A DNA stretch of 28,815 bases from Deinococcales bacterium. GTDB lineage: Bacteria > Deinococcota > Deinococci > Deinococcales > JAAFIG01. Positions within the stretch are counted from its first letter, which is position 1, and each line of letters begins with the position of its first letter. Under the pieces are notes generated by a model. That model was not told where the DNA came from. It did not search any database and saw only the letters and a list, made by a program, of their open reading frames with translations. Positions 2,346-16,023 of this stretch are shown here, in pieces. Location: assembly GCA_031414595.1 (NCBI GenBank), contig JANNVX010000042.1, positions 1 through 28,815 on the forward strand. Direction: 5' to 3'. The position numbers and the translations under genes are program-made.

Positions 2346-3351
2346 TTAAAAGTCAAGCCCCACCCCCACTTTTGCTACCATCATGTCAACCCACGGAGTA
2401 CGGTCACGCATAATAGTATGCAAGACAGCTAATAATTTACGCATACAAGCCACCAAAGCCACCTTCCTAGCCTTCCCTGCCGCTACCAGTCGTTTATAAC
2501 GACTTTTATGGCAGGGTTGTGCTTAACGGCAGTCTGAGCCGCCATATACAGCACAGCGCGAACTTCACCACGACCACCACGAATTAATCGTGAGCCACGA
2601 TGACCACCACTGTCATGATTCATTGGTGCAACCCCAACTAAAGCGCTTAAACTCGAGTGAGAAGCACTACTTAATTCAGGTAAACTCAAGAGTAATGTCG
2701 CCGACACGACTGGTCCGACACCAGCGCGAACAGCCCGATAGGTGCTGTCTTGTGAGCAAGAAGGAACGCCTTGCAGCAGAGCATCTAAGGCTTTAAATTC
2801 CGTGTCAGAGCGAATTAAGGTTCGCATCTGACCGTCAACATCAGCAATTTCCTGCTCGAGAAAATCAATCACACTTTGAATACTGGCTTGAGTGGCAGCA
2901 TCAGTGGTGCTTCCAAGGCGATTTCGTTCCATTTTTATCATCTCGAGGAGTTGTCTGCGACGCGATACAATACTTTCCAAAGCTCTTTTTTGTTGACTGG
3001 CTGGTATCGTGATTTCAGGTCGTATTCGAGATGCAAATTCAGCGAGGATAACAGCATCTATCACATCGGTTTTAGCTAGTTTCCCATTGCTTTGGCAAAA
3101 TCTCGTACTTGCCTTGGATTGACTACTGCAATCGGTAAGTTTGCTTCGCTGCACGCTAAGAATACAGGTTGCTCGAATCCTCCTGTTGACTCACAAGTCA
3201 TTAACGTTGGTTTTTGTTTCTTGATGTATTTTACGAATTGTTTGATACCCTTGGGCGTGTTCTCAAAAGCTAAAACTTCAGCATTGGGTAGAATCACGAC
3301 ATCAAGTCTAGGTTTACAAACGTCAATTCCAACGAATACTTCCTGTGCCAT
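2346..3351 (-). pseudogene. IS110 DEDD recombinase/transposase with two -1 frameshifts and a 13-codon insertion
   Basis: Motifs VGIDVCK, CESTGG, VNPRQVRDF, KTDVIDA, GVGP, DSG and LYMAA. Frameshifts at about 3080 (AMG/KLAKTD) and about 2498; the latter continues YKRLVAAGKARKVALVACMRKLL...GLDF to a stop at 2346. Insert SCSQDSTYRAVRA splits the conserved VPGVGP. Confidence 0.92.
2723..2761 (-). mobile_element. 39-bp mini-element inserted in frame in the transposase
   Basis: GTTC-CT-[TCTTGCTCACAAGACAGCACCTATCGGGCTGTTCGCGCT]-GGTGTC. Removing it restores the codons for V-P-G-V-G-P. Confidence 0.85.
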
Positions 3352-3675: not shown

Positions 3676-4167
3676 TCACTCGAGTTCGTCCACTGCATGA
3701 ATCCACGCGGCATCAGCATCATCTTGTGGTTTGTGGTGTCGTTCAATAATTTCAGCCACTCGAGCATCACCCTTTGCGCTGCGAATCAGCATTGCGCCGA
3801 ATTGTGGATGCAATGCCCGCACTTCAAGGGCAGTAAGCGGCGTTTTTTTTCGCATTGCCGTATCAAAATCAAGTTCTGGAATGGTTTGTAAGCCAGCCCA
3901 AACCCGTTCGCGCCAACGGTAAGCTCGTACCTGTTTACCACAATCATGAAGCAGGGCAGCGCAAATCAGGATTTTTGAGGCATCTGGTTTGAGTAAAAGT
4001 AAACGCTGCGCCACTCGCACCCCATGTTCTCGGTCTCGAGCATCCATGTTGCTATACACACGGTACTCGGACTCAGGTAGATATGTGGCTGCCCAAGCAT
4101 CGTCGGGCTTAGCAAACTCTGGGCGCATGGCACGAATTAAACGATTGATTCGCAAAAAGAAATTCAT
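3676..4167 (-). CDS. HD-domain metal-dependent phosphohydrolase
   Basis: Motifs REH, ALLHDCGK, HP..GA, IERHH and terminal D. Begins 2 bp after the stop of the upstream gene. Confidence 0.85.
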   Translation of the reverse strand: MNFFLRINRLIRAMRPEFAKPDDAWAATYLPESEYRVYSNMDARDREHGVRVAQRLLLLKPDASKILICAALLHDCGKQVRAYRWRERVWAGLQTIPELDFDTAMRKKTPLTALEVRALHPQFGAMLIRSAKGDARVAEIIERHHKPQDDADAAWIHAVDELE

Positions 4168-5085: not shown

Positions 5086-5436
5086 TTAGCTGACTGGTGT
5101 CAACGCTAAGTTATCAGATTCGCCAGTGCGGATTCGCACCACCCGCTCGAGTGGTTGAACAAAGATTTTTCCGTCACCGACTGCGCCTGAACGGGCGCTG
5201 CGGACAATTGCTTGGACAGTGCGTTCCACAAATGGCTCTGAAACCGCAATCTCGAGACGGACTTTTTCGTGGAATTCAAAGACAAGCGGGCGACCTCGGT
5301 ACGTTTCCAAGTGTTCTTTTTCGCCACCATGACCAGAGACTCGGGAAATGGTTAAGCCGGTGACTTCTTCTTTGAATAACTCGGTTTTGACATCTTCGAG
5401 TTTTTCGGGGCGGATAATAGCAACAATTAATTTCAT
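5086..5436 (-). CDS. glnK: Nitrogen regulatory protein P-II
   Basis: MKLIVAIIRPEKL, YRG, GDGKIFV, RIRTGE. AGGAGG RBS. Adjacent to amt. Confidence 0.95.
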   Translation of the reverse strand: MKLIVAIIRPEKLEDVKTELFKEEVTGLTISRVSGHGGEKEHLETYRGRPLVFEFHEKVRLEIAVSEPFVERTVQAIVRSARSGAVGDGKIFVQPLERVVRIRTGESDNLALTPVS

Positions 5437-5677: not shown

Positions 5678-5707
5678 TTGACAGTTTGCTTTAGACTTGT
5701 TTATACT
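5678..5707 (+). promoter_or_regulatory. sigma70-type promoter for amtB
   Basis: TTGACA (5678-5683), 18 bp, TATACT (5702-5707). Confidence 0.7.
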
Positions 5708-5750
5708 CCCGCCATTAAGTCGCGCTTGGGCGCACGAAGGGGGCATTAAG

Positions 5751-7181
5751 ATGAGAAATTGGAAACTGGTATCGCCGATGTGGAAATTCGTAGTACCGAT
5801 GCTGTTGGGATTCTCGAGTTTGGCACTTGGGCAAGATGAAAAATGGGCAGCCGACACAGGCGACACCGCTTGGATGTTGGTTTCAACTGCTTTGGTGATG
5901 CTGATGACTCCGGGCTTGGCTTTCTTTTATGGTGGTTTGGTACGTTCCAAAAATTCTTTGAACACCATGATGATGTCCTACATTGCCTTGGGAGTGGTTA
6001 CAATTCTTTGGGTGACAATTGGATTTAGCTTGGCGTTTACCAATGATAAAGACCCAAATTGGATTCCTGGGCTTTTAGGCAGCTTAAAATATGCCTTCTT
6101 AAATGGAATAGATGGAACTGCGCCGTACTTACCCGCCGCCCCAACCATTCCAAATAGCCTATTTATGATTTTCCAAATGATGTTTGCGATTATTACCCCT
6201 GCTTTAATCAGTGGTGCAATTATCGAACGAATGAAATTCAAAACCTACTTGGTATTTATTGCCTTGTGGTTACTGGTGGTCTATGTGCCAGTTTGCCACG
6301 CGGTTTGGTCAGCCGATGGTTTTTTATTTAAGATGGGCGCACTCGATTTTGCTGGTGGCACTGTGGTTCATATCACGGCTGGTGTATCGGCGTTGGTTGC
6401 CGCGATTATCCTCGGACCAAGACGCGGTTTTGGACGGGTTGCCATGGCACCGCATAATGTTCCGTTTGTGCTGCTTGGGGCTGGATTACTGTGGTTTGGC
6501 TGGTTCGGCTTTAACGGCGGAAGTGCTGTAGCCGCAGGTGGAAGTCTTGCCAGTAGCGCTTTTATTGCCACCCACGTTGCAGCCGCAACTGCCATGGTGA
6601 TGTGGAGCTTACTCGAGATGTTCAAAACGGGGCATATTAGTGCTGTTGGTGCAGCTACAGGAGCAGTGGTTGGTTTGGTTGCGATTACTCCTGCTTCTGG
6701 GTATGTTGGACCAATGGCAAGTATCGCGATTGGCGCAATTGCGGCGGCTGTTTCGTTTGGCGCAATTCAAATTAAGAACCGCTTAAATTTAGATGATTCA
6801 CTCGATGTTTTTGCTTGTCACGGTATTGGTGGAATTACTGGGGCATTATTAACAGGTGTTTTTGCTTCCAAAGCGGTAAATCCAGCCATTACAGGTGGTT
6901 TACTCGAGGGCAATGCAGGGCAAATCTGGACTCAATTTTTGGGTGTGGCATTTGCTGTGGTAGCCGCTGCCATTGGCACAGCCGTACTGATGTATGCCCT
7001 GAAAGCGATGATGGGCTTACGACCAGACAGCCGTGACGAAGAACAAGGACTTGACCTTGCCGACCACGGCGAATCGGGCTACCACGGTGGCGAGTACGGC
7101 GTGACCCCCGGTGCAAGACCCATCGGCTCGAGTGTCACACTGAGCGTCCCAGTGGGTTCAAAAGCCGTAGCTGGCAACTAA
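5751..7181 (+). CDS. amtB: Ammonium transporter
   Basis: MTPGLAFFYGG, FQMMFAIIT, ER, DFAGGTVVH, WFGWFGFNGGS, DDSLDVFACHG. AAGGGGG RBS precedes ATG 5751. Confidence 0.96.
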   Translation: MRNWKLVSPMWKFVVPMLLGFSSLALGQDEKWAADTGDTAWMLVSTALVMLMTPGLAFFYGGLVRSKNSLNTMMMSYIALGVVTILWVTIGFSLAFTNDKDPNWIPGLLGSLKYAFLNGIDGTAPYLPAAPTIPNSLFMIFQMMFAIITPALISGAIIERMKFKTYLVFIALWLLVVYVPVCHAVWSADGFLFKMGALDFAGGTVVHITAGVSALVAAIILGPRRGFGRVAMAPHNVPFVLLGAGLLWFGWFGFNGGSAVAAGGSLASSAFIATHVAAATAMVMWSLLEMFKTGHISAVGAATGAVVGLVAITPASGYVGPMASIAIGAIAAAVSFGAIQIKNRLNLDDSLDVFACHGIGGITGALLTGVFASKAVNPAITGGLLEGNAGQIWTQFLGVAFAVVAAAIGTAVLMYALKAMMGLRPDSRDEEQGLDLADHGESGYHGGEYGVTPGARPIGSSVTLSVPVGSKAVAGN

Positions 7182-7195
7182 AAAAAACTTAAGCC

Positions 7196-7229
7196 AATCA
7201 GCCCTCAATTTGGGGGCTGATTTTATTTT
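7196..7229 (+). terminator. Intrinsic terminator after amtB
   Basis: AATCAGCCCT-loop-GGGGCTGATT followed by TTATTTT; overlaps the end of the convergent GNAT gene. Confidence 0.6.
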
Positions 7230-7743
7230 GCCGCTCGAGCCAAACACGGCGCGTCAGTTCGTACTTGGCAAAACGGTATTTGCCTGTATTGGTTGTCCCA
7301 ATAAACAAAAATCCATTCTTTTCAAAACTCGAGCGAGCGCGTTGGTTATCTTCTAAGGTCTCGAGGGTAATCCGCCCAAAATCTTTGGCAAAAATAAATT
7401 GTAAAGCCAAGCGCAACGCCCGAGTCCCTAAGCCCAAACCCCAAAGGCGTTTTTCGCCAATCAGAATCCCGAGAACCGCACTTTTTGGCTGCTGCACAAT
7501 GTCGTAAAATTCGACGCTGCCAATAAAAACCTGATCGAAATAAATCGCCAAGCCGATTCGCTCACCACTTTTTTCTTCACCCAGCACAATGTTTTTGAAC
7601 AACCAAAGCGGCATGAAAATCGGGTTTGCACCGTTTAGAAGCGCAATTTCTTTATCCCGAAAATACCTGTAAAATAATGCCCAATCTTTGGGTTTCATCT
7701 CGAGCATCGGGCGTACTTCAAGATGAGCGTCTTGCAAAACCAT
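7198..7743 (-). CDS. GNAT acetyltransferase, RimJ/RimL-like
   Basis: LGILIGEKRLWGLGLG and N.RA...FEKNGF. Leaderless start ATG 7743, 6 nt after TACAAT. The longer ORF-track start overlaps the SRP RNA. Confidence 0.85.
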   Translation of the reverse strand: MVLQDAHLEVRPMLEMKPKDWALFYRYFRDKEIALLNGANPIFMPLWLFKNIVLGEEKSGERIGLAIYFDQVFIGSVEFYDIVQQPKSAVLGILIGEKRLWGLGLGTRALRLALQFIFAKDFGRITLETLEDNQRARSSFEKNGFLFIGTTNTGKYRFAKYELTRRVWLERQNKISPQIEG

Positions 7744-7750
7744 AAGACCA

Positions 7751-7780
7751 TTGTAAAACACCAGCCCGATGACATATACT
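7751..7780 (+). promoter_or_regulatory. Promoter for SRP RNA, overlapping the divergent GNAT -10
   Basis: TTGTAA (7751-7756), 18 bp, TATACT (7775-7780), 7 nt before the RNA stem. Confidence 0.6.
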
Positions 7781-7787
7781 CCTGCCC

Positions 7788-7889
7788 GCGTCATCGGCGT
7801 AACGCGGTGATGGCTCTCGAATCAGGTCAGGTCCGGAAGGAAGCAGCCTTAAGGGATGCCCATCAGGTGCCGTTACTCACCGATGACGC
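7788..7889 (+). ncRNA. ffs: Bacterial small SRP RNA (4.5S)
   Basis: Signature TCAGGTCCGGAAGGAAGCAGC inside a long hairpin closed by GCGTCATCGG/CCGATGACGC, followed by a T run. Confidence 0.95.
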
Positions 7890-8000
7890 ACTTTTTTAAT
7901 AAATCCTAATTTAGGCTTGGATACAATCAACCTCTCACAGGTCAAGAAGCCTAATCCACTATTCACGAATTTTAGTTCAGGACAAATTTATCACTTTACC

Positions 8001-10043
8001 TCAAAGCGCATAGCCGAAGGCAGCCTTTAATTCTTCTAGGCTGCCAATTGGTTTTTGACATGCCATGTTCTGACAAATGAATACTTTGGGTTCTTGGCTT
8101 TGACGGTTTTCCAACAGTGGCAAATTAGCGTTTCCAGCCACAATCGCGGTGTGTGGTCGGTATTGGCGTTGCACCAGTTTTAGCATGGCTTGTGTGTCGT
8201 CCCTAGTCAAATCACCAGCCACAGCAATTTCTTGGTGTGGTGCAAGGTGTTGTTCTAAGGCGCGGTTAAGGCTACCAAAACCAGTCGGTTGACGCTGCAT
8301 CACTTCCTGCATTTGCAAAATAGCAGTCAGGGCAGTTTCTTCTAGGGCTGGCTGGCTGGTTAAGCGGGCGAGTTTAATCAGCAATAAGCTCGTCGCGCCG
8401 TTACCGCTTGGCATGGCGCTGTCAAAATAACTTTTTGGGCGAACAATTAGGGTGTCAAAGTCGCTAGGGGTGTCAAAAAAGCCGCCTTGGGGGTCGGTAA
8501 AAAACGCAAAGATGCTGCCGCTCAGGGCTTGGGCAGTCTCGAGGTAGTGGGTTTCAAAGGTGCTTTGGTAAAGTTCGAGCATTCCTAAGCCTAAGAGGGC
8601 ATAATCCTCGAGCATTCCATGGATTTTGGCGTTGCCGCCAGTTTTATAGCTGTGCCAGAGCCGCAAATGCCCAGTTTGGTCGGAATAAGCAAATTTCCCC
8701 AGCAAAAAAGCCGCTAAGTTTTTGGCGTGTTGCAGGTATTTTGGAGCGCGTCCGCCCATGATTCGCCCAGCAACAGCCAAGGCTTCTAGGGTTAAGCCGT
8801 TCCAACTGCACAAGATTTTGTCGTCTAAGCTAGGTTTGATACGTTTTTCTCGGGCATAAAAGAGTTTACCTTTGGCGTTCTCGAGCAGTTCTTCGATATT
8901 TTCGCCGCTTGCCATTAACGGCTCGAGTTCTTGGTGGGTAGCAGTTTGATGCAGTATGTTTTTGTGTTCCCAGTTGCCTTGGGGTAATACACCAAATGCG
9001 CGTTTGAAAATTGGGCTGTCTGCGCCAAGAATTGCGTCTATTTCGCTCTCATCCCAAACAAAGTATTTGCCTTCAATCCCTTCGGAATCGGCATCTTGAG
9101 CGCAGTAAAATCCGCCCTCTACCGACTGCATTTCGCGCAATAGGTACTCGAGGCTTTCTTTGGCGGTTAAAAAATATTGGATGTTTTGGGTGGCTTGGTA
9201 ACTGAGGGCATAAAGTTTAATCAGTTGGGCATTGTCATAGAGCATTTTTTCAAAGTGTGGCGCAAGCCAGCGTTCATCGGTGCTGTAGCGGGCAAAACCG
9301 CCGCCAAGGTGATCATAAATCCCGCCATCTGCCATACTGCCTAGGGTTTTTTGCAGCATCTCGAGGGCTTTGGGGTTGTTGGTGCGACTGTGATGCTCGA
9401 GCAACCATTCCAGATTAGCTGGATTGGGGAATTTGGGGGCTGCCCCAAAGCCGCCATATTGCGGGTCAAAGCTGCGTTCTAAGTTGCTTAGGGTTTTGTC
9501 GGAAGTTTCGATTTGTTCGGCACTTTTTAAGTTCTCAAAGTTTTTAAGATGATTGGTCAGGTCGTTGGCGCTCTCGAGCAATTGGCTGCGTTTGTTGTTC
9601 CAGGCTTCGGAAACCGAAATCAGCACTCGAGTCAAACCCGGTCTGCCATATCGGTCGGTTGGTGGGTAGTATGTGCCACCGTAAAAGGGTTTGCCTTCTG
9701 GGGTCAAAAAGACAGTCATCGGCCAGCCGCCAGCCCCACTTAAAATCTGCACTGCGTTCATATAAATGCTATCTACATCGGGGCGTTCTTCGCGGTCTAC
9801 TTTGATTGGGACAAATAATTTATTCATCAGGGCAGCAATCTCGAGGTTTTCAAAACTTTCGCGCTCCATCACATGACACCAGTGGCAAGCGCTGTAGCCC
9901 ACCGATAAAAGAATCGGTAGGTCTCGAGTTTTTGCCATCTCAAATGCCGCCTCTCCCCACGGTAGCCACGCCACTGGATTGTAAGCATGTTGTAAGAGAT
10001 ACGGGCTGGTTTCGTTGGCTAAGGCATTGGCTGGGTGTTTCAT
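8001..10043 (-). CDS. Thioredoxin-domain DUF255 protein (YyaL/SPATA20 family)
   Basis: [55 protein letters not shown] lies 6 nt before the ATG. Confidence 0.95.
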
Positions 10044-10137
10044 GGGGTTAGCCTAGGTTGAAAAGACCAAATTGGGTAGGGGCAGATGTGATGAAATTGT
10101 ACTTTTTACCCTTAAAATGCGTTAATGTTAGGTTCTG

Positions 10138-10782
10138 ATGTCCCGTTCTCATCTCGAGCAATTTCAAGATGTGGTTTTGGCTGCTTTACCGCAGGCAGAA
10201 TCTGTTTTGTTACCTGGTGAATTATCAAAGTATTTGCAACCCGAGGTGATGGCAGCGGCAATTGGGGCTTTACAAAATAATTTACCAGCCGCAGATATTA
10301 TTTTGGCAGCTTCGTTTGATGACCCCGCCTTGATTTTTGAATTGTCGCTTCGTTTAGGAATTCCGTTTGTGACGGCTCAAATTGTAGATGTAATTTTATC
10401 TGATGATACTGACTCGAGTGGTTTTTTGCAAAACGACCAGCTTTTGCAGGTTCAAGTAGCGGAGCAAACCATAGCGATTGTCAAAGGGGCAATTCCTCAA
10501 AATGCCAGAGTGTTGGTCTTTAGAGATGTACTGGACGAAGGCATCATGACCTTGAGTTTATTGCATTTGACGCAGTATAGTGGAGCATCGGCTGTGGGAG
10601 TGGCAGCATTAATTGAAAAAGGTTATTTAGGCGGGCGTAATCGTATTGCGATGGCTGTGTCGGGCATCGAGATTCAGGCATTGGTGGTCTTGGCTCGAGC
10701 CGCAGGGCGTGTCATCTTGGAGAAACGACAGGTACAATTGCTGGATTTACACATCCATAAGGGCAAACTAGGCGCATACTAG
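10138..10782 (+). CDS. Phosphoribosyltransferase-like protein with degenerate PRPP motif
   Basis: Overall Apt/Xpt-like pattern (LGIPFV, RVLVFRDVLDEG, VGVAALIEK), but the DD..TG.T signature is altered. Confidence 0.7.
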   Translation: MSRSHLEQFQDVVLAALPQAESVLLPGELSKYLQPEVMAAAIGALQNNLPAADIILAASFDDPALIFELSLRLGIPFVTAQIVDVILSDDTDSSGFLQNDQLLQVQVAEQTIAIVKGAIPQNARVLVFRDVLDEGIMTLSLLHLTQYSGASAVGVAALIEKGYLGGRNRIAMAVSGIEIQALVVLARAAGRVILEKRQVQLLDLHIHKGKLGAY

Positions 10783-10842
10783 ATAATTGACCTAAGACCA
10801 TCCTATGTAGGTCGTATCATTCATCAGTAACGAGGTGCAAGT

Positions 10843-11868
10843 GTGAATCTGGAAAAACAATTAACTCAAATGTCTTTTGCGACCACAGCCTTTGTCTTGC
10901 CGCCCGTTCCTTTGGATGCACCGATTTTTCAAGCCTTATCAAGTGCTTTAATTCGCTGGGATATGCTCGAGGCAGATGTTGAATCGCGCAGTCAGTTCTC
11001 TGGATTTTCGATTTTACGCACCCCCACAGGAGTCGCTAGGGCATATTTTATTGATTCGCGTCTGGCTGGTGTGGTTGGGCAAATCGGCGCAGAAACAGGA
11101 CAGATACTGGGGCGCGAAGGTTTTTTATCGCTTTATATGAACCGCGAAGCCAGCATCAGCCTGTATACCTTAGACCGATATGCAGTACAGAGTTTACTCG
11201 AGATTGGCACTTGGGACTTACAACTCGAACGGGTTGTACCGCAAGCCTCAGTCAGTGCCATTATGTCGAGCATCGAACAACAAAATTTAACAGGGCAACT
11301 GCTGACCCTTGGTGAAGATTGGCGCGGAGTCATGACCTATAACAATGGCACACCAGTCTTGGTCAGTTACGAACAAGCCGAACGGGTACTTTTTCAACAC
11401 GAAGCCCAAACCAGAATCGCTCTTGAATCCACCGAAGAAGGGACTCGATTTGCGGTCTACAGCAAAAATGGCTTCTCGAGTCTTGATCAGAACACAATTT
11501 TGAGCGAAAGTTCATTCGATGAACTGATTCGAGCTTGGAACGAAATTCTGTCTTTTTGCGAGAAACGCACCGATTCGGTACGCGGCAAAGATACTTGGGA
11601 TTTGACCTTTCGTAAAGCCCGTTTGCTGCTGGTAGACCGTTATGGCACACTCGACCCATTCTTAGACGATTTGCGTTACACCGCCAGTTTACTGATTGTC
11701 AGTCGTCCTAGCCAAGAGTTATTTGAGGGTTTAGTGGCGGCTTACTTAGAAACCTTAAAGCAATTGCAGATTCCACCAGAAGCGCTTTACCCGCTTATAG
11801 CGCCAATTCGGGATAAGTACCGTCGCTTATGGCGGGCAGCTGGGCTTGAAGTCGTTTGTCCGCTCTAA
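10843..11868 (+). CDS. Hypothetical cytoplasmic protein, possibly two DUF4388/PATAN-like modules plus a helical C-terminus
   Basis: Long ORF with GAGGT RBS. Repeated FSG...YFIDSRL / LTG...TYNNGTP patterns. The domain call is tentative. Confidence 0.65.
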   Translation: MNLEKQLTQMSFATTAFVLPPVPLDAPIFQALSSALIRWDMLEADVESRSQFSGFSILRTPTGVARAYFIDSRLAGVVGQIGAETGQILGREGFLSLYMNREASISLYTLDRYAVQSLLEIGTWDLQLERVVPQASVSAIMSSIEQQNLTGQLLTLGEDWRGVMTYNNGTPVLVSYEQAERVLFQHEAQTRIALESTEEGTRFAVYSKNGFSSLDQNTILSESSFDELIRAWNEILSFCEKRTDSVRGKDTWDLTFRKARLLLVDRYGTLDPFLDDLRYTASLLIVSRPSQELFEGLVAAYLETLKQLQIPPEALYPLIAPIRDKYRRLWRAAGLEVVCPL

Positions 11869-11893
11869 AATATGGGTTCTATAAGGTTAAAAA

Positions 11894-12673
11894 ATGAGTA
11901 CATTATCTGGTGCATTAGAAAAAGAACAACTGTTTAGCCTATTGTCGTACCTAAAATTAACGGCGGCTTCTGGTCGGCTCGAGGTCCATTACGGACAAGA
12001 AGATGCCAGTATTTATATCGAAAGTGGCGAAGTCACCCATGCTGAAGCTGGGGTCTTACTTGGTCAGCACGCCATTCGTAAGGTCACAGGCTGGGCTGGT
12101 GGGCGTTTTCTTTTTCATTCGGGCGAACGCAGTCCTCGTTCAAGCATAGACACTTCGCTTGAAGGCTTGGCGCTTTCTATTGCTGTAGCCCAAGATGAGG
12201 GTATTTCCGACGATGAACTAGGGGTTGACCTTGACCGCCGAGCCAGAATGGTCGGACAATTTGAAGGTGAATTAACCCTTTCTGCCGATGAACTGATGTT
12301 GCTGCCGCGTTTGAATGGCTCAGCAACCCTGCGTCAAGTCGGTCAAAGCCTCAATTGGTCTGAAGTGCGAACTCGGCAAGCGGTGGCTGCTTTAAGCACA
12401 CGCGGTTTATTGCAAGTTGGTAAGACAACCACCAGTACCATCTCAAATGAATTTATGCTCGAGTTACGGCGCAGCTATATGGGCTTACTTGGTCCTGCTG
12501 GAGAATTTTTATATGCTGATGTCGGACACGGCTTAAGTGTGGATATGACCCAAGTGCCAGTCACAAGGTTCTCGGAAACCATACGGGCATTAGCCGACAG
12601 CATTGGCGATGTGGCAACTCGAGAACGCTTTATTCAAAGTCTGGTACAACTTCGGAGTAAATATGAAATTTAA
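11894..12673 (+). CDS. DUF4388 (PATAN-like) domain protein with winged-helix-like middle
   Basis: LSG.L....L..LL..L.....SG.L.V......IYIESGEVTHA....G..A.....W..G.F.F pattern, then NGSATLRQV...L..RGLL. Confidence 0.8.
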   Translation: MSTLSGALEKEQLFSLLSYLKLTAASGRLEVHYGQEDASIYIESGEVTHAEAGVLLGQHAIRKVTGWAGGRFLFHSGERSPRSSIDTSLEGLALSIAVAQDEGISDDELGVDLDRRARMVGQFEGELTLSADELMLLPRLNGSATLRQVGQSLNWSEVRTRQAVAALSTRGLLQVGKTTTSTISNEFMLELRRSYMGLLGPAGEFLYADVGHGLSVDMTQVPVTRFSETIRALADSIGDVATRERFIQSLVQLRSKYEI

Positions 12674-12711
12674 GCACATTTTTGTTAATTTCGATCTCAA
12701 CAGGAGGTCAT

Positions 12712-14157
12712 ATGAGTAGTTTTAGCATTCATTTAAGCGAACCACTGTCCGATGGCGAAGCCAAACGGGTTGCCCAATTAACCGCACCAGCTTTGGGTGG
12801 TAGCCCCGAAAAATTGCAACTGCTACTCTCGAGACAAGCCGGCTCGAGAATTGCCAGAGCCGCTAATCAGCGCCAAGCCGAGACGGTTGCCAATATCCTA
12901 CGCAGTGCTGGGGTTAAAGTAGATGTTCTCGAGAATGCCGCCGAGGGTGAGGTTATTCCACCCACGGCGATTATTCCTCCTGTGTTGGCGGCTGTTCGTC
13001 CTGTGCAAGCCGATCCATTTGCTTCACCCAATATCCCACCCTTAAATCCACAAATTGTAGATTCTTTTGCTGCGCCGAAATCAGACCCCTTTGCTGCTCC
13101 AAAATCAGACCCGTTTGCTGCTCCAAAGTCAGACCCATTTGCTGCTCCAAAATCAGACCCATTTGCTGCTCCAAAGTCAGACCCATTTGCTGCTCCAAAG
13201 TCGGAATCCGTGACACGCACAAACCCAGTCAATACAGACCCATTTGCAGCCCCCGGAATGTCGGTGGTGGTGGATAAGAAAGAAGTTGTACTTACAGATT
13301 TACCAACCCAAGCCCGTAAAGCTCGAGACCGCGCTATGCCGCGTACCAGTGTGCGTAATCAAATGCTTATCTCGTTAATCATTCCGTATCTTCTGGTAGC
13401 CGTTGGCACAATTGCTTTTATGGCTTATCAGTTGCCGCAGATTTATCGTCAGGAACTTGGGTTAAGGGCGTATCAAGCTGCCGTTAGCGAAGCCGAATCT
13501 AACTTTGGGCTTATCGAACAATTACCTGCTCCAGCCGCTTTAGCCGAACTCCAAGCCGAAGCTGAAGGTGACTTAAAACAAATTCCAGAAGCAGCAGCTG
13601 TTATTTATGAAGCTACAATTTTAGAAATATCTGGAGCAAATGGGGCTTTGGCGGCGGTTGCTTCGACCAATAATATGACCATAGCCGAAGCTCGAGGACT
13701 CGAAAAACAATTTAAGGAACTCGAGGCACAAGGTTTGGGTTTTGGTCCAATTAGTTTTCGTGGTCAACCCTATATTGGTTCAGTTGCCGAAATTAAAGCT
13801 GAAGAACTGGTTGCACCGGCTTCATCCACTAATCAAGCCGAAAGTGCAATTGGCGAAGTCCATGTGATATTTTCTGTCTCCGAAATTCCAAACCGAGTGA
13901 TTCAAGCTATTGTTCCGCTTTTAGTTGCCCTAGGCATTATTTTTATTTTTGCGCTGTTTTTAGCCAATGCCCTAGCAAGTCGTTTGGCGCGTCCAATCAT
14001 TTCGGCTACCGACCAAGCCAACCGTATTGCCCTAGGCGATTTAGACCGCAGTGTGACCGTAGAATCCAACGATGAAATCGGCGACATGCTTGGTTCGCTC
14101 GAGCGAATGCGTGTTTCCTTAAAATCTATGGTGGCGCGAATGAGGCGAAATACATGA
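12712..14157 (+). CDS. Membrane sensor-like protein: N-terminal cytoplasmic domain with DPF repeats, 2 TM, C-terminal HAMP
   Basis: AGGAGG RBS; two hydrophobic segments; HAMP motif RPI...ANRIALGDL....DEIGDM..SLERM ends the protein. Confidence 0.85.
   Translation: MSSFSIHLSEPLSDGEAKRVAQLTAPALGGSPEKLQLLLSRQAGSRIARAANQRQAETVANILRSAGVKVDVLENAAEGEVIPPTAIIPPVLAAVRPVQADPFASPNIPPLNPQIVDSFAAPKSDPFAAPKSDPFAAPKSDPFAAPKSDPFAAPKSDPFAAPKSESVTRTNPVNTDPFAAPGMSVVVDKKEVVLTDLPTQARKARDRAMPRTSVRNQMLISLIIPYLLVAVGTIAFMAYQLPQIYRQELGLRAYQAAVSEAESNFGLIEQLPAPAALAELQAEAEGDLKQIPEAAAVIYEATILEISGANGALAAVASTNNMTIAEARGLEKQFKELEAQGLGFGPISFRGQPYIGSVAEIKAEELVAPASSTNQAESAIGEVHVIFSVSEIPNRVIQAIVPLLVALGIIFIFALFLANALASRLARPIISATDQANRIALGDLDRSVTVESNDEIGDMLGSLERMRVSLKSMVARMRRNT
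13060..13200 (+). repeat. 24-bp coding tandem repeat (SDPFAAPK x5 plus one degenerate unit)
   Basis: TCAGACCCNTTTGCTGCTCCAAAR at 13081, 13105, 13129, 13153 and 13177. Units differ only at synonymous positions. Confidence 0.95.
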
Positions 14158-15719
14158 CCGCTAAAACCTTGCGGCGTTGGTTGCCTTTGCTGCTGGCGTT
14201 GGGGTTTACCAGTTTTGCACTTGCCACCGACCCAAACGGAGCAAACACGGGTGGCATTGGTAATATCACTGACCCAACCCCCGATTCACCTTTAACCATC
14301 GAAGATTTAGGCAATATCCTAGGGCAGACTCGAGTTGCCTTAAACCTTGTCTGGGTGATGGTGGCGATGTTTTTAGTGATGTTTATGCAGGCTGGGTTTG
14401 CACTGGTCGAAGCTGGTTTTACTCGAGCCAAAAATGCTGGGCATACCATGATGATGAACCTTTTGGTCTACGGCTTAGGGGTGCTTGGTTTTTTAACTGT
14501 CGGTTTTGGGCTGCAAATGGGCGGCTCAGGTGGGAACGTAGCCGCTTTTGGTGGCGGTGATAACCTTAATTGCTTATTGGGGCTAACGATTGGCGATCAA
14601 AAATGGGGTTTTTTAGGCTGCACTGGTTTTGGCTTAGCGGGCAATTCTTATGATGTCGCAACCTTTGCTTTGTTCTTTTTTCATCTGGTCTTCTTGGATG
14701 CAGCCCTGACCATCCCGACAGGGGCATTAGCCGAACGTTGGCGCTCGAGTGCTTTTATTTTGTATGTACTTGGTGCTTCAACCCTGATTTATCCTGTGTT
14801 CGCAAATTGGGCATGGGGTGGCGGGTGGCTTTCGCAACTGGGTAAGAACTTGGGTTTAGGCAATGGTTATGTGGATTTTGCGGGTTCTGGGGTGGTGCAT
14901 TTGACGGGTGCAGTCATGAGCTTGATGGGCATCCTTGTTTTGGGTCCACGCATTGGACGTTTTAACCGCGATGGCACGGCTCGAGTAATTGCAGCCCATA
15001 ATTTGCCACTGGCAATTTTAGGCACTTTCATTTTGGCATTCGGTTGGTTTGGCTTTAACGCAGGTTCAACCTTAGCTGCCACCGATATTCGTTTTGTGAC
15101 TGTGGCAGTCAGCGCCATGATTTGCTCGGCGGCTGGCATGGTTGCGGCTGCATTTTATACATCTGCCCTGAACGGACGTATTGACCTTGGCATGGTTGCC
15201 AACGGAATGCTTGGCGGTTTGGTCGCCAATACCGCTTCGGGCGCGTTTATCGGCGCACCAGCCAGTGTGGTAGTTGGAGCAGTGGCTGGATTATTGGTGG
15301 TTTGGGGAACAGAACTGCTCGAGAAGTGGCGCATAGATGACGCTGTGGGCGCAATTCCAGTCCACGGTATTTGTGGGATTTGGGGTTTGCTGTGTGTTGG
15401 AATTTTTGCCGATGGCACATACGGACGCGGTTTTAATGGTGTTGACAGCACTGTTACAGGTATTTTGTACGGCAATTGGCAACAGATGGTGGCACAACTG
15501 ATTGGCATTGCCACCAATATCCTCTGGGTTGCCCCAACCAGTTATTTGTTATTTCGAGCCATTGATCGTTTTGGCGGCGGTATGCGGGTCAAACCACAAG
15601 CCGAAATTGAGGGCTTGGATTACCACGAATTAAGCGCTCCAGCTTACCCTCGAGACGATGACCATGAACCTAAACCAATACCGCAAAGCAATACCGATTT
15701 AATGCCCGTCGAACGGTAG
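14154..15719 (+). CDS. amt: Ammonium transporter (second, divergent paralog)
   Basis: FMQAGFALVEAG, GALAER, DFAGSGVVH, FGWFGFNAGS, DDAVGAIPVHG. ATGA overlap with the HAMP gene. Confidence 0.95.
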   Translation: MTAKTLRRWLPLLLALGFTSFALATDPNGANTGGIGNITDPTPDSPLTIEDLGNILGQTRVALNLVWVMVAMFLVMFMQAGFALVEAGFTRAKNAGHTMMMNLLVYGLGVLGFLTVGFGLQMGGSGGNVAAFGGGDNLNCLLGLTIGDQKWGFLGCTGFGLAGNSYDVATFALFFFHLVFLDAALTIPTGALAERWRSSAFILYVLGASTLIYPVFANWAWGGGWLSQLGKNLGLGNGYVDFAGSGVVHLTGAVMSLMGILVLGPRIGRFNRDGTARVIAAHNLPLAILGTFILAFGWFGFNAGSTLAATDIRFVTVAVSAMICSAAGMVAAAFYTSALNGRIDLGMVANGMLGGLVANTASGAFIGAPASVVVGAVAGLLVVWGTELLEKWRIDDAVGAIPVHGICGIWGLLCVGIFADGTYGRGFNGVDSTVTGILYGNWQQMVAQLIGIATNILWVAPTSYLLFRAIDRFGGGMRVKPQAEIEGLDYHELSAPAYPRDDDHEPKPIPQSNTDLMPVER

Positions 15720-15761: not shown

Positions 15762-15794
15762 AAAAAAATGACCCCGAATTCGGGGTCATTTTTT
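15762..15794. terminator. Bidirectional intrinsic terminator
   Basis: Perfect palindrome ATGACCCCGAATTCGGGGTCAT flanked by A and T runs, between convergent genes. Confidence 0.85.
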
Positions 15795-16023
15795 AATCTT
15801 CGTCATCATCATCTTCTTCATCGTCATCATCTTCGTCATCGTCGTCTTCCATGTAGACACCTTCGGTTTCATAACCTTCGATGTCCTCAGCCGTAGCAAC
15901 TTCCTCGTCGTTGGCAAAGAACGAAACGACACCATCATCGTTAAGTTCTATTGTTACATCGTCGGGGTCTATGTCGTCGGGAACGGTCACATAAAAAACG
16001 GCGGTCAATTCAATTTCTGGCAT
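15793..16023 (-). CDS. Small, extremely acidic hypothetical protein
   Basis: Strong GAGGAGG RBS and its own terminator; 76 aa with an Asp/Glu tail. Confidence 0.75.
   Translation of the reverse strand: MPEIELTAVFYVTVPDDIDPDDVTIELNDDGVVSFFANDEEVATAEDIEGYETEGVYMEDDDDEDDDDEEDDDDED

Follow-up and report, generated by a model that had tools for sequence, protein, structure and literature searches.

What does a membrane receptor without an output domain do when its gene is coupled to that of an ammonium transporter (Amt) family protein and is preceded by the genes of two PATAN-type (DUF4388) proteins? The question is raised by positions 10138–15719 of contig JANNVX010000042.1 from the Deinococcales bacterium assembly GCA_031414595.1 (4.49 Mb in 120 contigs), the window analyzed here being the whole 28.8-kb contig (28,815 nucleotides). 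Comparative analysis, based on one uncultured family, reveals directly a conserved gene order, conserved coupling of the receptor gene to that of the Amt protein (here named Amt2), recognizable domain folds, the absence of an enzymatic output and, in paralogous copies of the module, the exchange of Amt2 for a membrane protein of the MHYT family. The arrangement may be that of a split sensor operating without a kinase, a reading that in our judgment is evenly poised.

Gene Cluster and Conserved Core

The cluster consists of five genes and a terminator, as follows.

10138–10782, plus strand: divergent protein of putative phosphoribosyltransferase fold, 214 amino acids (aa); accessory, conserved only in genera g1 and g5
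10843–11868, plus strand: tandem PATAN-like protein, 341 aa, its C-terminal domain helical (AlphaFold2 (AF2) model, hhalign, paralogues)
11894–12673, plus strand: PATAN (DUF4388) protein, 259 aa (PF14332 at residues 5–102); middle domain winged-helix-like, C-terminal domain conserved
12712–14157, plus strand: output-less transmembrane receptor, 481 aa from ATG 12712 (Shine–Dalgarno site, Pfam, AF2 model)
14154–15719, plus strand: Amt2, divergent ammonium transporter family protein with a signal peptide and an N-terminal periplasmic extension, 521 aa (PF00909)
15763–15794, no strand assigned: bidirectional intrinsic terminator hairpin, closing the cluster and common to a convergent small acidic open reading frame (ORF)

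The five ORFs (10138–10782, 10843–11868, 11894–12673, 12682/12712–14157 and 14154–15719) are separated by 60 bp (genes 1 and 2), 25 bp (genes 2 and 3) and, with the receptor starting at ATG 12712, 38 bp (genes 3 and 4). This start is the most likely one, judged from the AGGAGG 5 nt before it; the longest ORF instead begins at TTG 12682. The stop codon of the receptor and the start codon of Amt2 overlap as ATGA at 14154–14157. Downstream, the hairpin at 15763–15794 comprises a 14-bp stem preceded by an A-run and followed by a T-run (free energy −21 kcal/mol, z −5.5, none of 200 shuffles scoring as well) and is missing from the output of a simple terminator scan. ORF, Shine–Dalgarno and hairpin analysis thereby agree with the original prediction, made from the DNA letters and their translations, of five co-oriented genes with these gaps, an ATGA overlap and one terminator. 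Pfam searches of the cluster returned DUF4388 (E 1.6e-11), HAMP (E 2.5e-11) and Ammonium_transp (E 8.3e-104) for the last three genes, and no match at E ≤ 0.01 for the first two.

For comparison, 40 relatives were searched with the receptor and the 341-aa protein, and 19 loci were fetched without regard to the presence of an Amt gene. Nine orthologous loci, from four genomes of genus g1, three of g5 and one each of g4 and g2, all in one uncultured Deinococcales family, display the order tandem-PATAN, PATAN, receptor, Amt2 without exception, at 31–88% protein identity across the four genera. These four genes, encoding the tandem PATAN-like protein, the PATAN/winged-helix-like protein, the receptor and Amt2, constitute the conserved core. 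The receptor and Amt2 genes overlap by 4 bp in the window and in loci L043, L044, L045 and L050; in the g5 loci L047–L049 the longest ORFs overlap by 11 bp. A start/stop overlap is kept in all eight loci with intact ends. Approached from the side of the transporter, Amt2-type genes (at least 61% identity) occur in eight of 301 sampled Deinococcota genomes, only in the family of the window, with the receptor upstream in seven and the eighth gene cut by a contig end. A search for related loci with a nine-row alignment yielded 15 loci, all of the same family. Gene-neighborhood conservation had been put forward as a check on the module, an Amt gene unlinked from the others elsewhere being the outcome that would speak against it; the linkage withstood this check in nine of nine loci and, seen from the Amt side, in seven of eight genomes.

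A Receptor That Ends at HAMP

The receptor encoded by gene 4 is built from the following parts.

12712–12936, plus strand: N-terminal cytoplasmic domain, residues 1–75, predicted ClpS-like alpha/beta fold (AF2 and VIA-align)
13066–13199, plus strand: 24-bp tandem repeat, 5.6 copies, encoding SDPFAAPK units of a disordered linker (Tandem Repeats Finder)
13357–13434, plus strand: first transmembrane (TM) helix, residues ~216–241 (hydropathy scan; model helix 211–263)
13435–13875, plus strand: periplasmic PDC/Cache-like domain, residues ~242–388 (VIA-align)
13876–13971, plus strand: second TM helix, residues ~389–420 (hydropathy scan; model helix from 389)
13972–14124, plus strand: HAMP domain, residues 421–471 (PF00672, E 2.5e-11), the stop codon following 10 residues later

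HAMP (44.1 bits) is the last domain, with no HisKA/HATPase, methyl-accepting chemotaxis protein (MCP) signaling (MCPsignal) or GGDEF domain between it and the stop codon. All 12 aligned receptors of the family likewise end some 10 residues after HAMP, and in 42 of 42 database relatives (E ≤ 1e-5, 264–842 aa) HAMP is the sole signaling domain, with no kinase, MCP or cyclase. Because of these two series we rejected the reading of the receptor as a truncated kinase, which had been named as the finding in relatives that would undo the proposed module; the accompanying claim, that the receptor stops right after HAMP without kinase, MCP or cyclase, is borne out by Pfam and by the same two series. 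HAMP is also the best-conserved part of the receptor, its sequence being 70% identical from genus to genus and 48% identical in the comparison with the MHYT-type paralogues described below, and the periplasmic domain is the least conserved (23% and 11%, respectively), a pattern that fits HAMP as an interaction surface.

The description "HAMP receptor" holds for the terminal domain but omits the folded cytoplasmic N-domain, the repeat linker and the PDC/Cache-like periplasmic domain. The AF2 model of the receptor has an overall pLDDT (predicted local distance difference test) of 67.8, with about 85 in the N-domain and values below 50 for residues 77–197. VIA-align places the N-domain closest to ClpS (9ayn, Z 8.5, rmsd 2.5 over 74 residues; 7d34, Z 8.3; 4yjm, Z 7.7). 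The linker repeat scores 226 in Tandem Repeats Finder with 93% matches; orthologous receptors, 481 to 695 aa in size, differ greatly in their DPF-type repeats and in the length of the linker. The periplasmic domain matches PDC/Cache structures, namely CitA (2j80, Z 11.3, rmsd 3.0 over 122 residues), 3li8 (Z 11.3) and DctB (Z 11.2), and further LuxQ (Z 10.7), the LapD-like output domain 4u64 (Z 10.1) and McpH, within the range of Z 9–11.3. The model thus places a sensor fold of the PDC/Cache type, a class with a long N-terminal helix and a five-stranded alpha/beta fold, between two TM helices, and two database relatives of the receptor carry sCache_3 Pfam domains (PF17202 or PF17203).

A profile of the N-domain is found in 163 of the 301 Deinococcota genomes, among them 8 of 9 in the family of the window (f1), 75 of 103 in family f2 and 79 of 112 in f3, and in none of the 76 sampled genomes of f4 and f5. 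Proteins with Sel1/ankyrin repeats and a membrane protein with a Yip1 domain likewise begin with the ClpS-like N-domain (for example at L116, L124, L125 and L128), and several of them adjoin MFS transporters.

Amt2 and the Ammonium Receptors

Amt2 is a member of the Amt/Mep/Rh family, covering all 399 positions of PF00909 at 347.9 bits (cut-off 23.2) and reaching 342.4 on TIGR00836, just under the cut-off of 343.3. The twin His (H249 and H404), the Phe gate (F180 and F301) and Ser (S305) are invariant in eight orthologues and the GWFGFNAGS stretch is kept, in line with the original observation that both pore His motifs and WFGFNAGS are present. Its best PDB matches are Sd-Amt1 of Shewanella denitrificans (204.5 bits) and Ks-Amt5 of Kuenenia stuttgartiensis (198), followed by Af-Amt1 (157) and AmtB (~148). 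Amt1, the other Amt protein of the window, served as control and gives the reverse order, with Sd-Amt1 and Ks-Amt5 last.

The ammonium-receptor signature, in the portion of Pfluger et al. 2024 (PMC11152129) that sets it out, consists of an N1 part, Q-X6-E-X15-N with T-X2-[S/T] further on, and an N2 part, N-X2-D-[F/T] with 54–60 residues to Thr. Of the N1-site ligands of Sd-Amt1, Amt2 has Q79 and E86, to which the protein of the window and its g1 and g4 orthologues add N102, T186 and T189; Amt2 also keeps the exit-narrowing Asn (N350). At the corresponding positions Amt1 has T, Y, S, A and S for the five N1-site ligands and Thr for the exit Asn, keeping none. By these alignments Amt2 appears to resemble the ammonium receptors of known structure more closely than it does AmtB, which supports a sensory reading.

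No transducer is fused to the C-terminus of Amt2, which in eight of eight orthologues ends about 25 residues past the usual C-terminal region. Long relatives at 35–42% identity are overwhelmingly Amt domains fused to kinases, GGDEF/EAL, SpoIIE or MCP modules. The Amts of family f2 were considered as orthologues of Amt2 and rejected, being 38–43% identical (16 genomes) and ordinary, a P-II gene following immediately in at least 7 of the 16 loci.

The Two PATAN-Type Proteins

The 259-aa protein of gene 3 scores 44.7 bits on PF14332 (cut-off 25), which 15 of 15 family members match. Behind this domain, at residues ~128–200, the family profile matches solely winged-helix proteins (MarR, ArsR, Lrp, Snf8), weakly, at E 0.02–0.9. 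Matches to HTH_5 are found in 4 of 15 family members, to HTH_20 in 3 of 15 and to HTH_47 in relatives from family f2; the protein of the window itself gave no helix-turn-helix (HTH) match in Pfam at E ≤ 0.05. For its C-terminal 80 residues, though a conserved domain, the protein atlas held no usable match.

Gene 2 had been labeled hypothetical. Pfam gives no match for its 341-aa product, which itself appears to be PATAN-like by its alignment to the PATAN profile and by the scores of its paralogues. Its AF2 model (pLDDT 84) comprises two beta-rich domains (27–131 and 132–207) and helices at 222–332. Residues 132–207 align with the PATAN profile at an hhalign probability of 43% and E 2.5e-4, two paralogues score 24.3 and 26.6 bits on PF14332 (cut-off 25), weak DUF4388 matches occur in 9 of 20 distant relatives, and the protein atlas offers as a lead a PatA_N/DUF2226 cluster at 0.93. 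There is no convincing match among solved structures: Foldseek gave only sliding clamps (TM-score 0.10–0.14) and VIA-align a best Z of 6.5 over 81 residues, on which values both fold assignments were rejected, and the family profile found nothing among PDB sequences at E ≤ 1. Close relatives are few (36 clusters) and the wider superfamily counts 498 representatives at E ≤ 1e-3. Among the 40 relatives searched, the protein is limited to family f1 (16 of 18 genomes, as against 0 of 22 in other families). The counterparts in genus g2 (L051 and L060) are 478–534 aa long by longest ORF and are matched by the query in two separated pieces, which points to inserted sequence or an additional domain.

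In Pfam, the two PATAN proteins of the operon are without a Response_reg match, and they are therefore not of the PatA type. The genome holds 11 DUF4388/PATAN genes (contigs C71 at L076, C28 at L074, C88 at L082, C18 at L081, C86 at L075, C41 at L073 and C115 at L077), and those of 250–270 aa adjoin a Na:alanine symporter, a PilT-like ATPase with an RDD protein, an amylase/solute-binding protein (SBP) operon and an RND pump. One PATAN domain is fused to an AhpC/TSA peroxiredoxin domain, and two PatA-like PATAN-REC proteins are encoded on C41 and C115, one of them within a che cluster. The genome further encodes four T2SSE-type ATPases, one PATAN gene adjoining the PilT-like ATPase, as well as Roadblock proteins.

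Reuse of the Module and Exchange of Partners

Five paralogous triplets, encoding proteins of ~340, 272 and 440 aa, are present in the family, all of them without Amt. In three of the five the triplet is followed by a stand-alone MHYT membrane protein (L053 and L055, Pfam E 1e-35 and 9e-45; L054, 83% identity by tblastn), and four genomes hold both types of module, Amt2-type and paralogous. MHYT is reported to have been validated as a CO-responsive sensor domain (PMC11347149). The replacement of Amt by MHYT supports a sensory reading.

Outside the family, 13 further Deinococcales loci were examined, and in 11 of them the gene immediately before that of an N-domain/HAMP-terminal receptor encodes a PATAN protein. 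One further pair locus (L136) also contains a gene like that of the 341-aa protein, and the genes downstream of the pairs vary. Since the PATAN–receptor pair is widespread in Deinococcales, the minimal unit is, as far as sequence comparison tells, the PATAN protein plus the receptor, with the tandem-PATAN protein and the membrane partner as additions of this lineage. In one locus (L061; G006:C12, 3548–12957) a PATAN protein of 213 aa and a receptor of 356 aa are encoded within a glycoside hydrolase (GH) operon in the order GH81, GH1, PATAN, receptor, GH43, xylose-isomerase-like. At L135 (G207:C1, ~6200–7913) a 240-aa N-domain protein is encoded on the minus strand, its gene being divergent from one of bacteriorhodopsin type (PF01036, E 4.8e-61). 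We considered rhodopsin as a possible third plug-in partner and rejected it, the N-domain gene being on the opposite strand without an operon link.

Proposed Function and Alternatives

The reading that we put forward, and hold to be evenly balanced, is that of a split sensor without a kinase: Amt2 (or MHYT) would serve as input or co-sensor, the receptor as transducer and the PATAN proteins as output. The strongest arguments are that two families of membrane sensors are swapped at one position, that translational coupling is conserved and that a highly conserved HAMP domain has nothing attached to it. Amt2 would report ammonium occupancy or flux laterally to the receptor, as sensory rhodopsin does to Htr or a transporter co-sensor to a kinase. 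HAMP and the N-domain would then change their hold on the PATAN proteins, and these would carry the output either by protein contact (a candidate is the type IV pilus motor, which PATAN contacts in cyanobacteria) or by winged-helix DNA binding. Every physical contact in this scheme, the signal and the output are ones that we infer. Complex prediction with Amt2 (25–505) and the receptor (200–481), using 8-row alignments and no controls, gave a score of 0.02 and a mark of 0.32, which speak neither for nor against binding. The arrangement points to an undescribed plug-in mode of nutrient sensing. In a broader version, which we offer tentatively and regard as rather unlikely, interchangeable membrane sensors (Amt for ammonium; MHYT for gases or redox) would dock sideways on an output-less PDC-HAMP transducer, whose HAMP and ClpS-like N-domain would act directly on PATAN adaptors that steer a pilus motor, polarity or a promoter.

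A number of observations weigh against Amt2 as a sensor. Amt2 and its orthologues do not follow the second half of the receptor signature: in place of the N2-site Asp, the eight of them have Val (as in the window), Ile or Thr, the next residue is Tyr, and the spacer in the window is 79 residues long as against the published 54–60. Because of these three departures Amt2 falls, by sequence, outside the published receptor class, yet closer to receptors than to canonical transporters. Even at the N1 site, Val replaces the Asn (position 102) and Ala the first Thr (position 186) in the three orthologues from g5. Amt2 is about equally near to ordinary glnK-linked Amts of sister families (38–43% identity) and to fused sensor Amts (35–42%), and stand-alone members of the receptor-like Amt cluster include true transporters, as stated in the part of PMC11152129 treating that cluster. 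Because every pore feature of a transporter is kept in Amt2 (twin His, Phe gate and Ser), transport activity is possible. The partner position can also be vacant: two of the five paralogous triplets (the g5 copies) and most of the f2 PATAN–receptor pairs are without a downstream membrane partner. Finally, all nine orthologous loci come from related metagenome-assembled genomes (MAGs) of one family and are, for that reason, not independent.

Best placed among the alternatives, and in our estimate unlikely, is a regulated-cargo operon, in which Amt2 would be a second transporter and no sensor, and the PATAN/winged-helix protein a local transcription factor held or released by a ligand-sensing PDC-HAMP receptor. 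The receptor has in its model a PDC/Cache ligand-binding fold of its own and could therefore sense a ligand without Amt; Amt2 retains all transport residues and fails the receptor signature; and winged-helix-like matches are found within the PATAN protein family, although the PATAN protein of the window has no such match at the threshold given above, and cyanobacterial work, in the portion of bioRxiv 10.1101/2021.06.11.447907 devoted to this point, argues against DNA binding by PatA-type proteins. The receptor-less PATAN genes of the same size (250–270 aa) beside the Na:alanine symporter, the amylase/SBP operon and the RND pump of the same genome fit a local-regulator role with Amt2 as cargo, as does the PATAN–receptor pair inside the glycoside hydrolase operon of L061. 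A mere cargo role accords less well with the MHYT protein, which replaces Amt in three of five paralogous operons and is known only as a sensor module (PMC11347149) and not as a transporter or enzyme that such an operon might regulate, or with the receptor–Amt2 overlap, which persists across genera whose periplasmic domains are only 23% identical.

It is improbable, in our view, that the receptor and PATAN proteins stand in for GlnK and gate Amt2 post-translationally, closing or opening its channel, in place of P-II. No P-II gene lies beside Amt2, whereas in sister families such a gene comes right after that of the 38–43%-identical Amt at 7 or more of 16 loci, and the only P-II gene of the window pairs with Amt1; the tight translational coupling suggests stoichiometric assembly, and HAMP receptors can signal inside-out, as does LapD, whose output-domain fold is among those that match the periplasmic domain (4u64). 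The same triplet, however, serves MHYT, which is no channel, and also stands alone, and the PATAN–receptor pair is widespread without any Amt. That Amt2 was inserted behind an unrelated triplet in a family ancestor and kept there by descent only, as the origin of all loci from one family of related MAGs and the existence of the triplet without Amt would allow, is very improbable given that order and overlap persist while the proteins diverge to 31–64% identity over four genera, that the slot behind the receptor was independently taken by another family of membrane sensors and that Amt2-type genes were never found apart from the receptor in 301 genomes.

Flanking Genes

The first gene of the cluster had been counted as a pseudo-phosphoribosyltransferase (pseudo-PRTase) belonging to the module. 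A PRTase-like gene lies upstream of the core in six of nine orthologous loci, L046 ending before its position, and was not detected in L050 and L051. Because it is undetected in these g4 and g2 loci, we place it outside the conserved core as a peripheral, accessory gene. Its product has no Pfam Pribosyltran match at E ≤ 0.01, and its best NCBIfam score, for XPRT/APRT, is 33.8 bits, well under the cut-off of 177. The phosphoribosyl pyrophosphate (PRPP) loop of type I PRTases consists of an acidic pair followed by a loop of the T-G-x-T type. In the alignment, the corresponding region of gene 1 is degenerate, differing between g1 and g5 and lacking the Thr-Gly start, and the protein thus shows neither a family-profile match above cut-off nor the intact PRPP loop of a type I phosphoribosyltransferase.

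Divergent from the cluster, a 680-aa DsbH/DUF255 thioredoxin-domain protein is encoded at 8001–10043 (minus strand). A divergent DsbH-like gene accompanies the core in six of nine orthologous loci and, like the PRTase-like gene, was not detected in those of g4 and g2. Because genera g1 and g5 have the arrangement in common, the 94-bp intergenic region 10044–10137 probably holds both promoters, that of the DsbH-like gene and that of the cluster.

About 7 kb upstream, the original prediction placed a canonical glnK/amtB pair. The two genes are there, but the P-II gene (5086–5436) is on the minus strand and Amt1 (5697–7181) on the plus strand, divergent and about 260–310 bp apart, and do not form an amtB-glnK operon. 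Within 10138–15719 there is no P-II gene, the only one of the window being that beside Amt1, on the strand opposite to the cluster. Amt2, without a co-directional P-II gene in its cluster, is thus not of the AmtB-GlnK operon type. Beyond the P-II/Amt1 pair lie an IS110-family transposase fragment and an HD-domain gene (2483–3154 and 3676–4167, both minus strand). On the other side, an ORF of 76 aa (15793–16023, minus strand) with a strong Shine–Dalgarno site and a C-terminal run of about 20 Asp/Glu converges on the amt2 terminator, and two small type IV pilin-like proteins with the prepilin N-terminal methylation motif are encoded at the contig end (27567–27986 and 28027–28524, both minus strand).

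Comparison with Known Systems

To our knowledge, every Amt protein recognized as an ammonium receptor is a fusion to a kinase or a cyclase, and PATAN is recognized as an output domain only where a receiver domain precedes it. For twenty years Af1503 and other HAMP-only receptors have been used as structural models, with no output known for them. The operon joins Amt, a HAMP-only receptor and PATAN in one conserved, enzyme-free unit, whose sensor slot is refilled by a second family. It thereby makes testable how HAMP signals when no output domain follows, whether receptor-like Amts that stand alone work through partners and which targets PATAN adaptors have outside cyanobacteria. Were the broader version of the split-sensor proposal true, there would be ammonium-guided behavior without phosphorylation or second messengers, and a function for HAMP-only receptors of the Af1503 type.

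A separate membrane protein that signals sideways to an adjacently encoded two-TM HAMP transducer has precedents in sensory rhodopsin II/HtrII, DctA/DcuS and BceAB/BceS. The transducers of these systems end in an MCP domain or a kinase, whereas that of the window ends at HAMP. The original remark that a split Amt-HAMP-DUF4388 complex was not recognized as a described one agrees with our literature searches (DUF4388/PATAN, Ks-Amt5/Sd-Amt1, Amt + HAMP neighborhoods), which found no described operon of Amt, HAMP-only receptor and PATAN, the searches not extending to the supplementary cluster tables of PMC11152129.

Among ammonium receptors, those closest to Amt2 are Sd-Amt1 and Ks-Amt5. In Sd-Amt1 the Amt domain is joined to a cyclase via HAMP, and the authors propose the receptor signature used above, as laid out in the corresponding part of PMC11152129. 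As in these proteins, an Amt-fold domain would here be tied to signaling, and the N1-site ligands and the exit Asn are kept in the Amt2 of the window. Their transducer, however, is fused to the Amt C-terminus and ends in a cyclase or kinase, whereas Amt2 stands alone, HAMP is part of another protein, the two-TM receptor, which has a PDC domain of its own but no enzyme, and the N2 Asp and the spacing are not kept.

Af1503 of Archaeoglobus fulgidus, portrayed in the relevant passage of PMC3585426 as non-signaling, of unknown function and without a periplasmic input domain, resembles the receptor, by description, as a membrane protein that ends in HAMP without a cytoplasmic output domain; the receptor of the window differs in its PDC/Cache domain, its ClpS-like N-domain and its repeat linker. 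With the PatA-type PATAN-REC regulators of cyanobacteria (Synechocystis), in which, according to the portion of bioRxiv 10.1101/2021.06.11.447907 on the domain, PATAN is an output domain, membrane-localized and binding PilB1 and PilC, the operon shares the PATAN (DUF4388) domain. In contrast to those regulators, its two PATAN proteins, one winged-helix-like and the other tandem PATAN-like, come without a receiver and without a kinase. The likeness to AmtB-GlnK, lastly, lies in the tight coupling of an Amt gene to that of a regulatory partner, and the difference in the partner, which here is not P-II, the P-II gene being 7 kb away beside Amt1.

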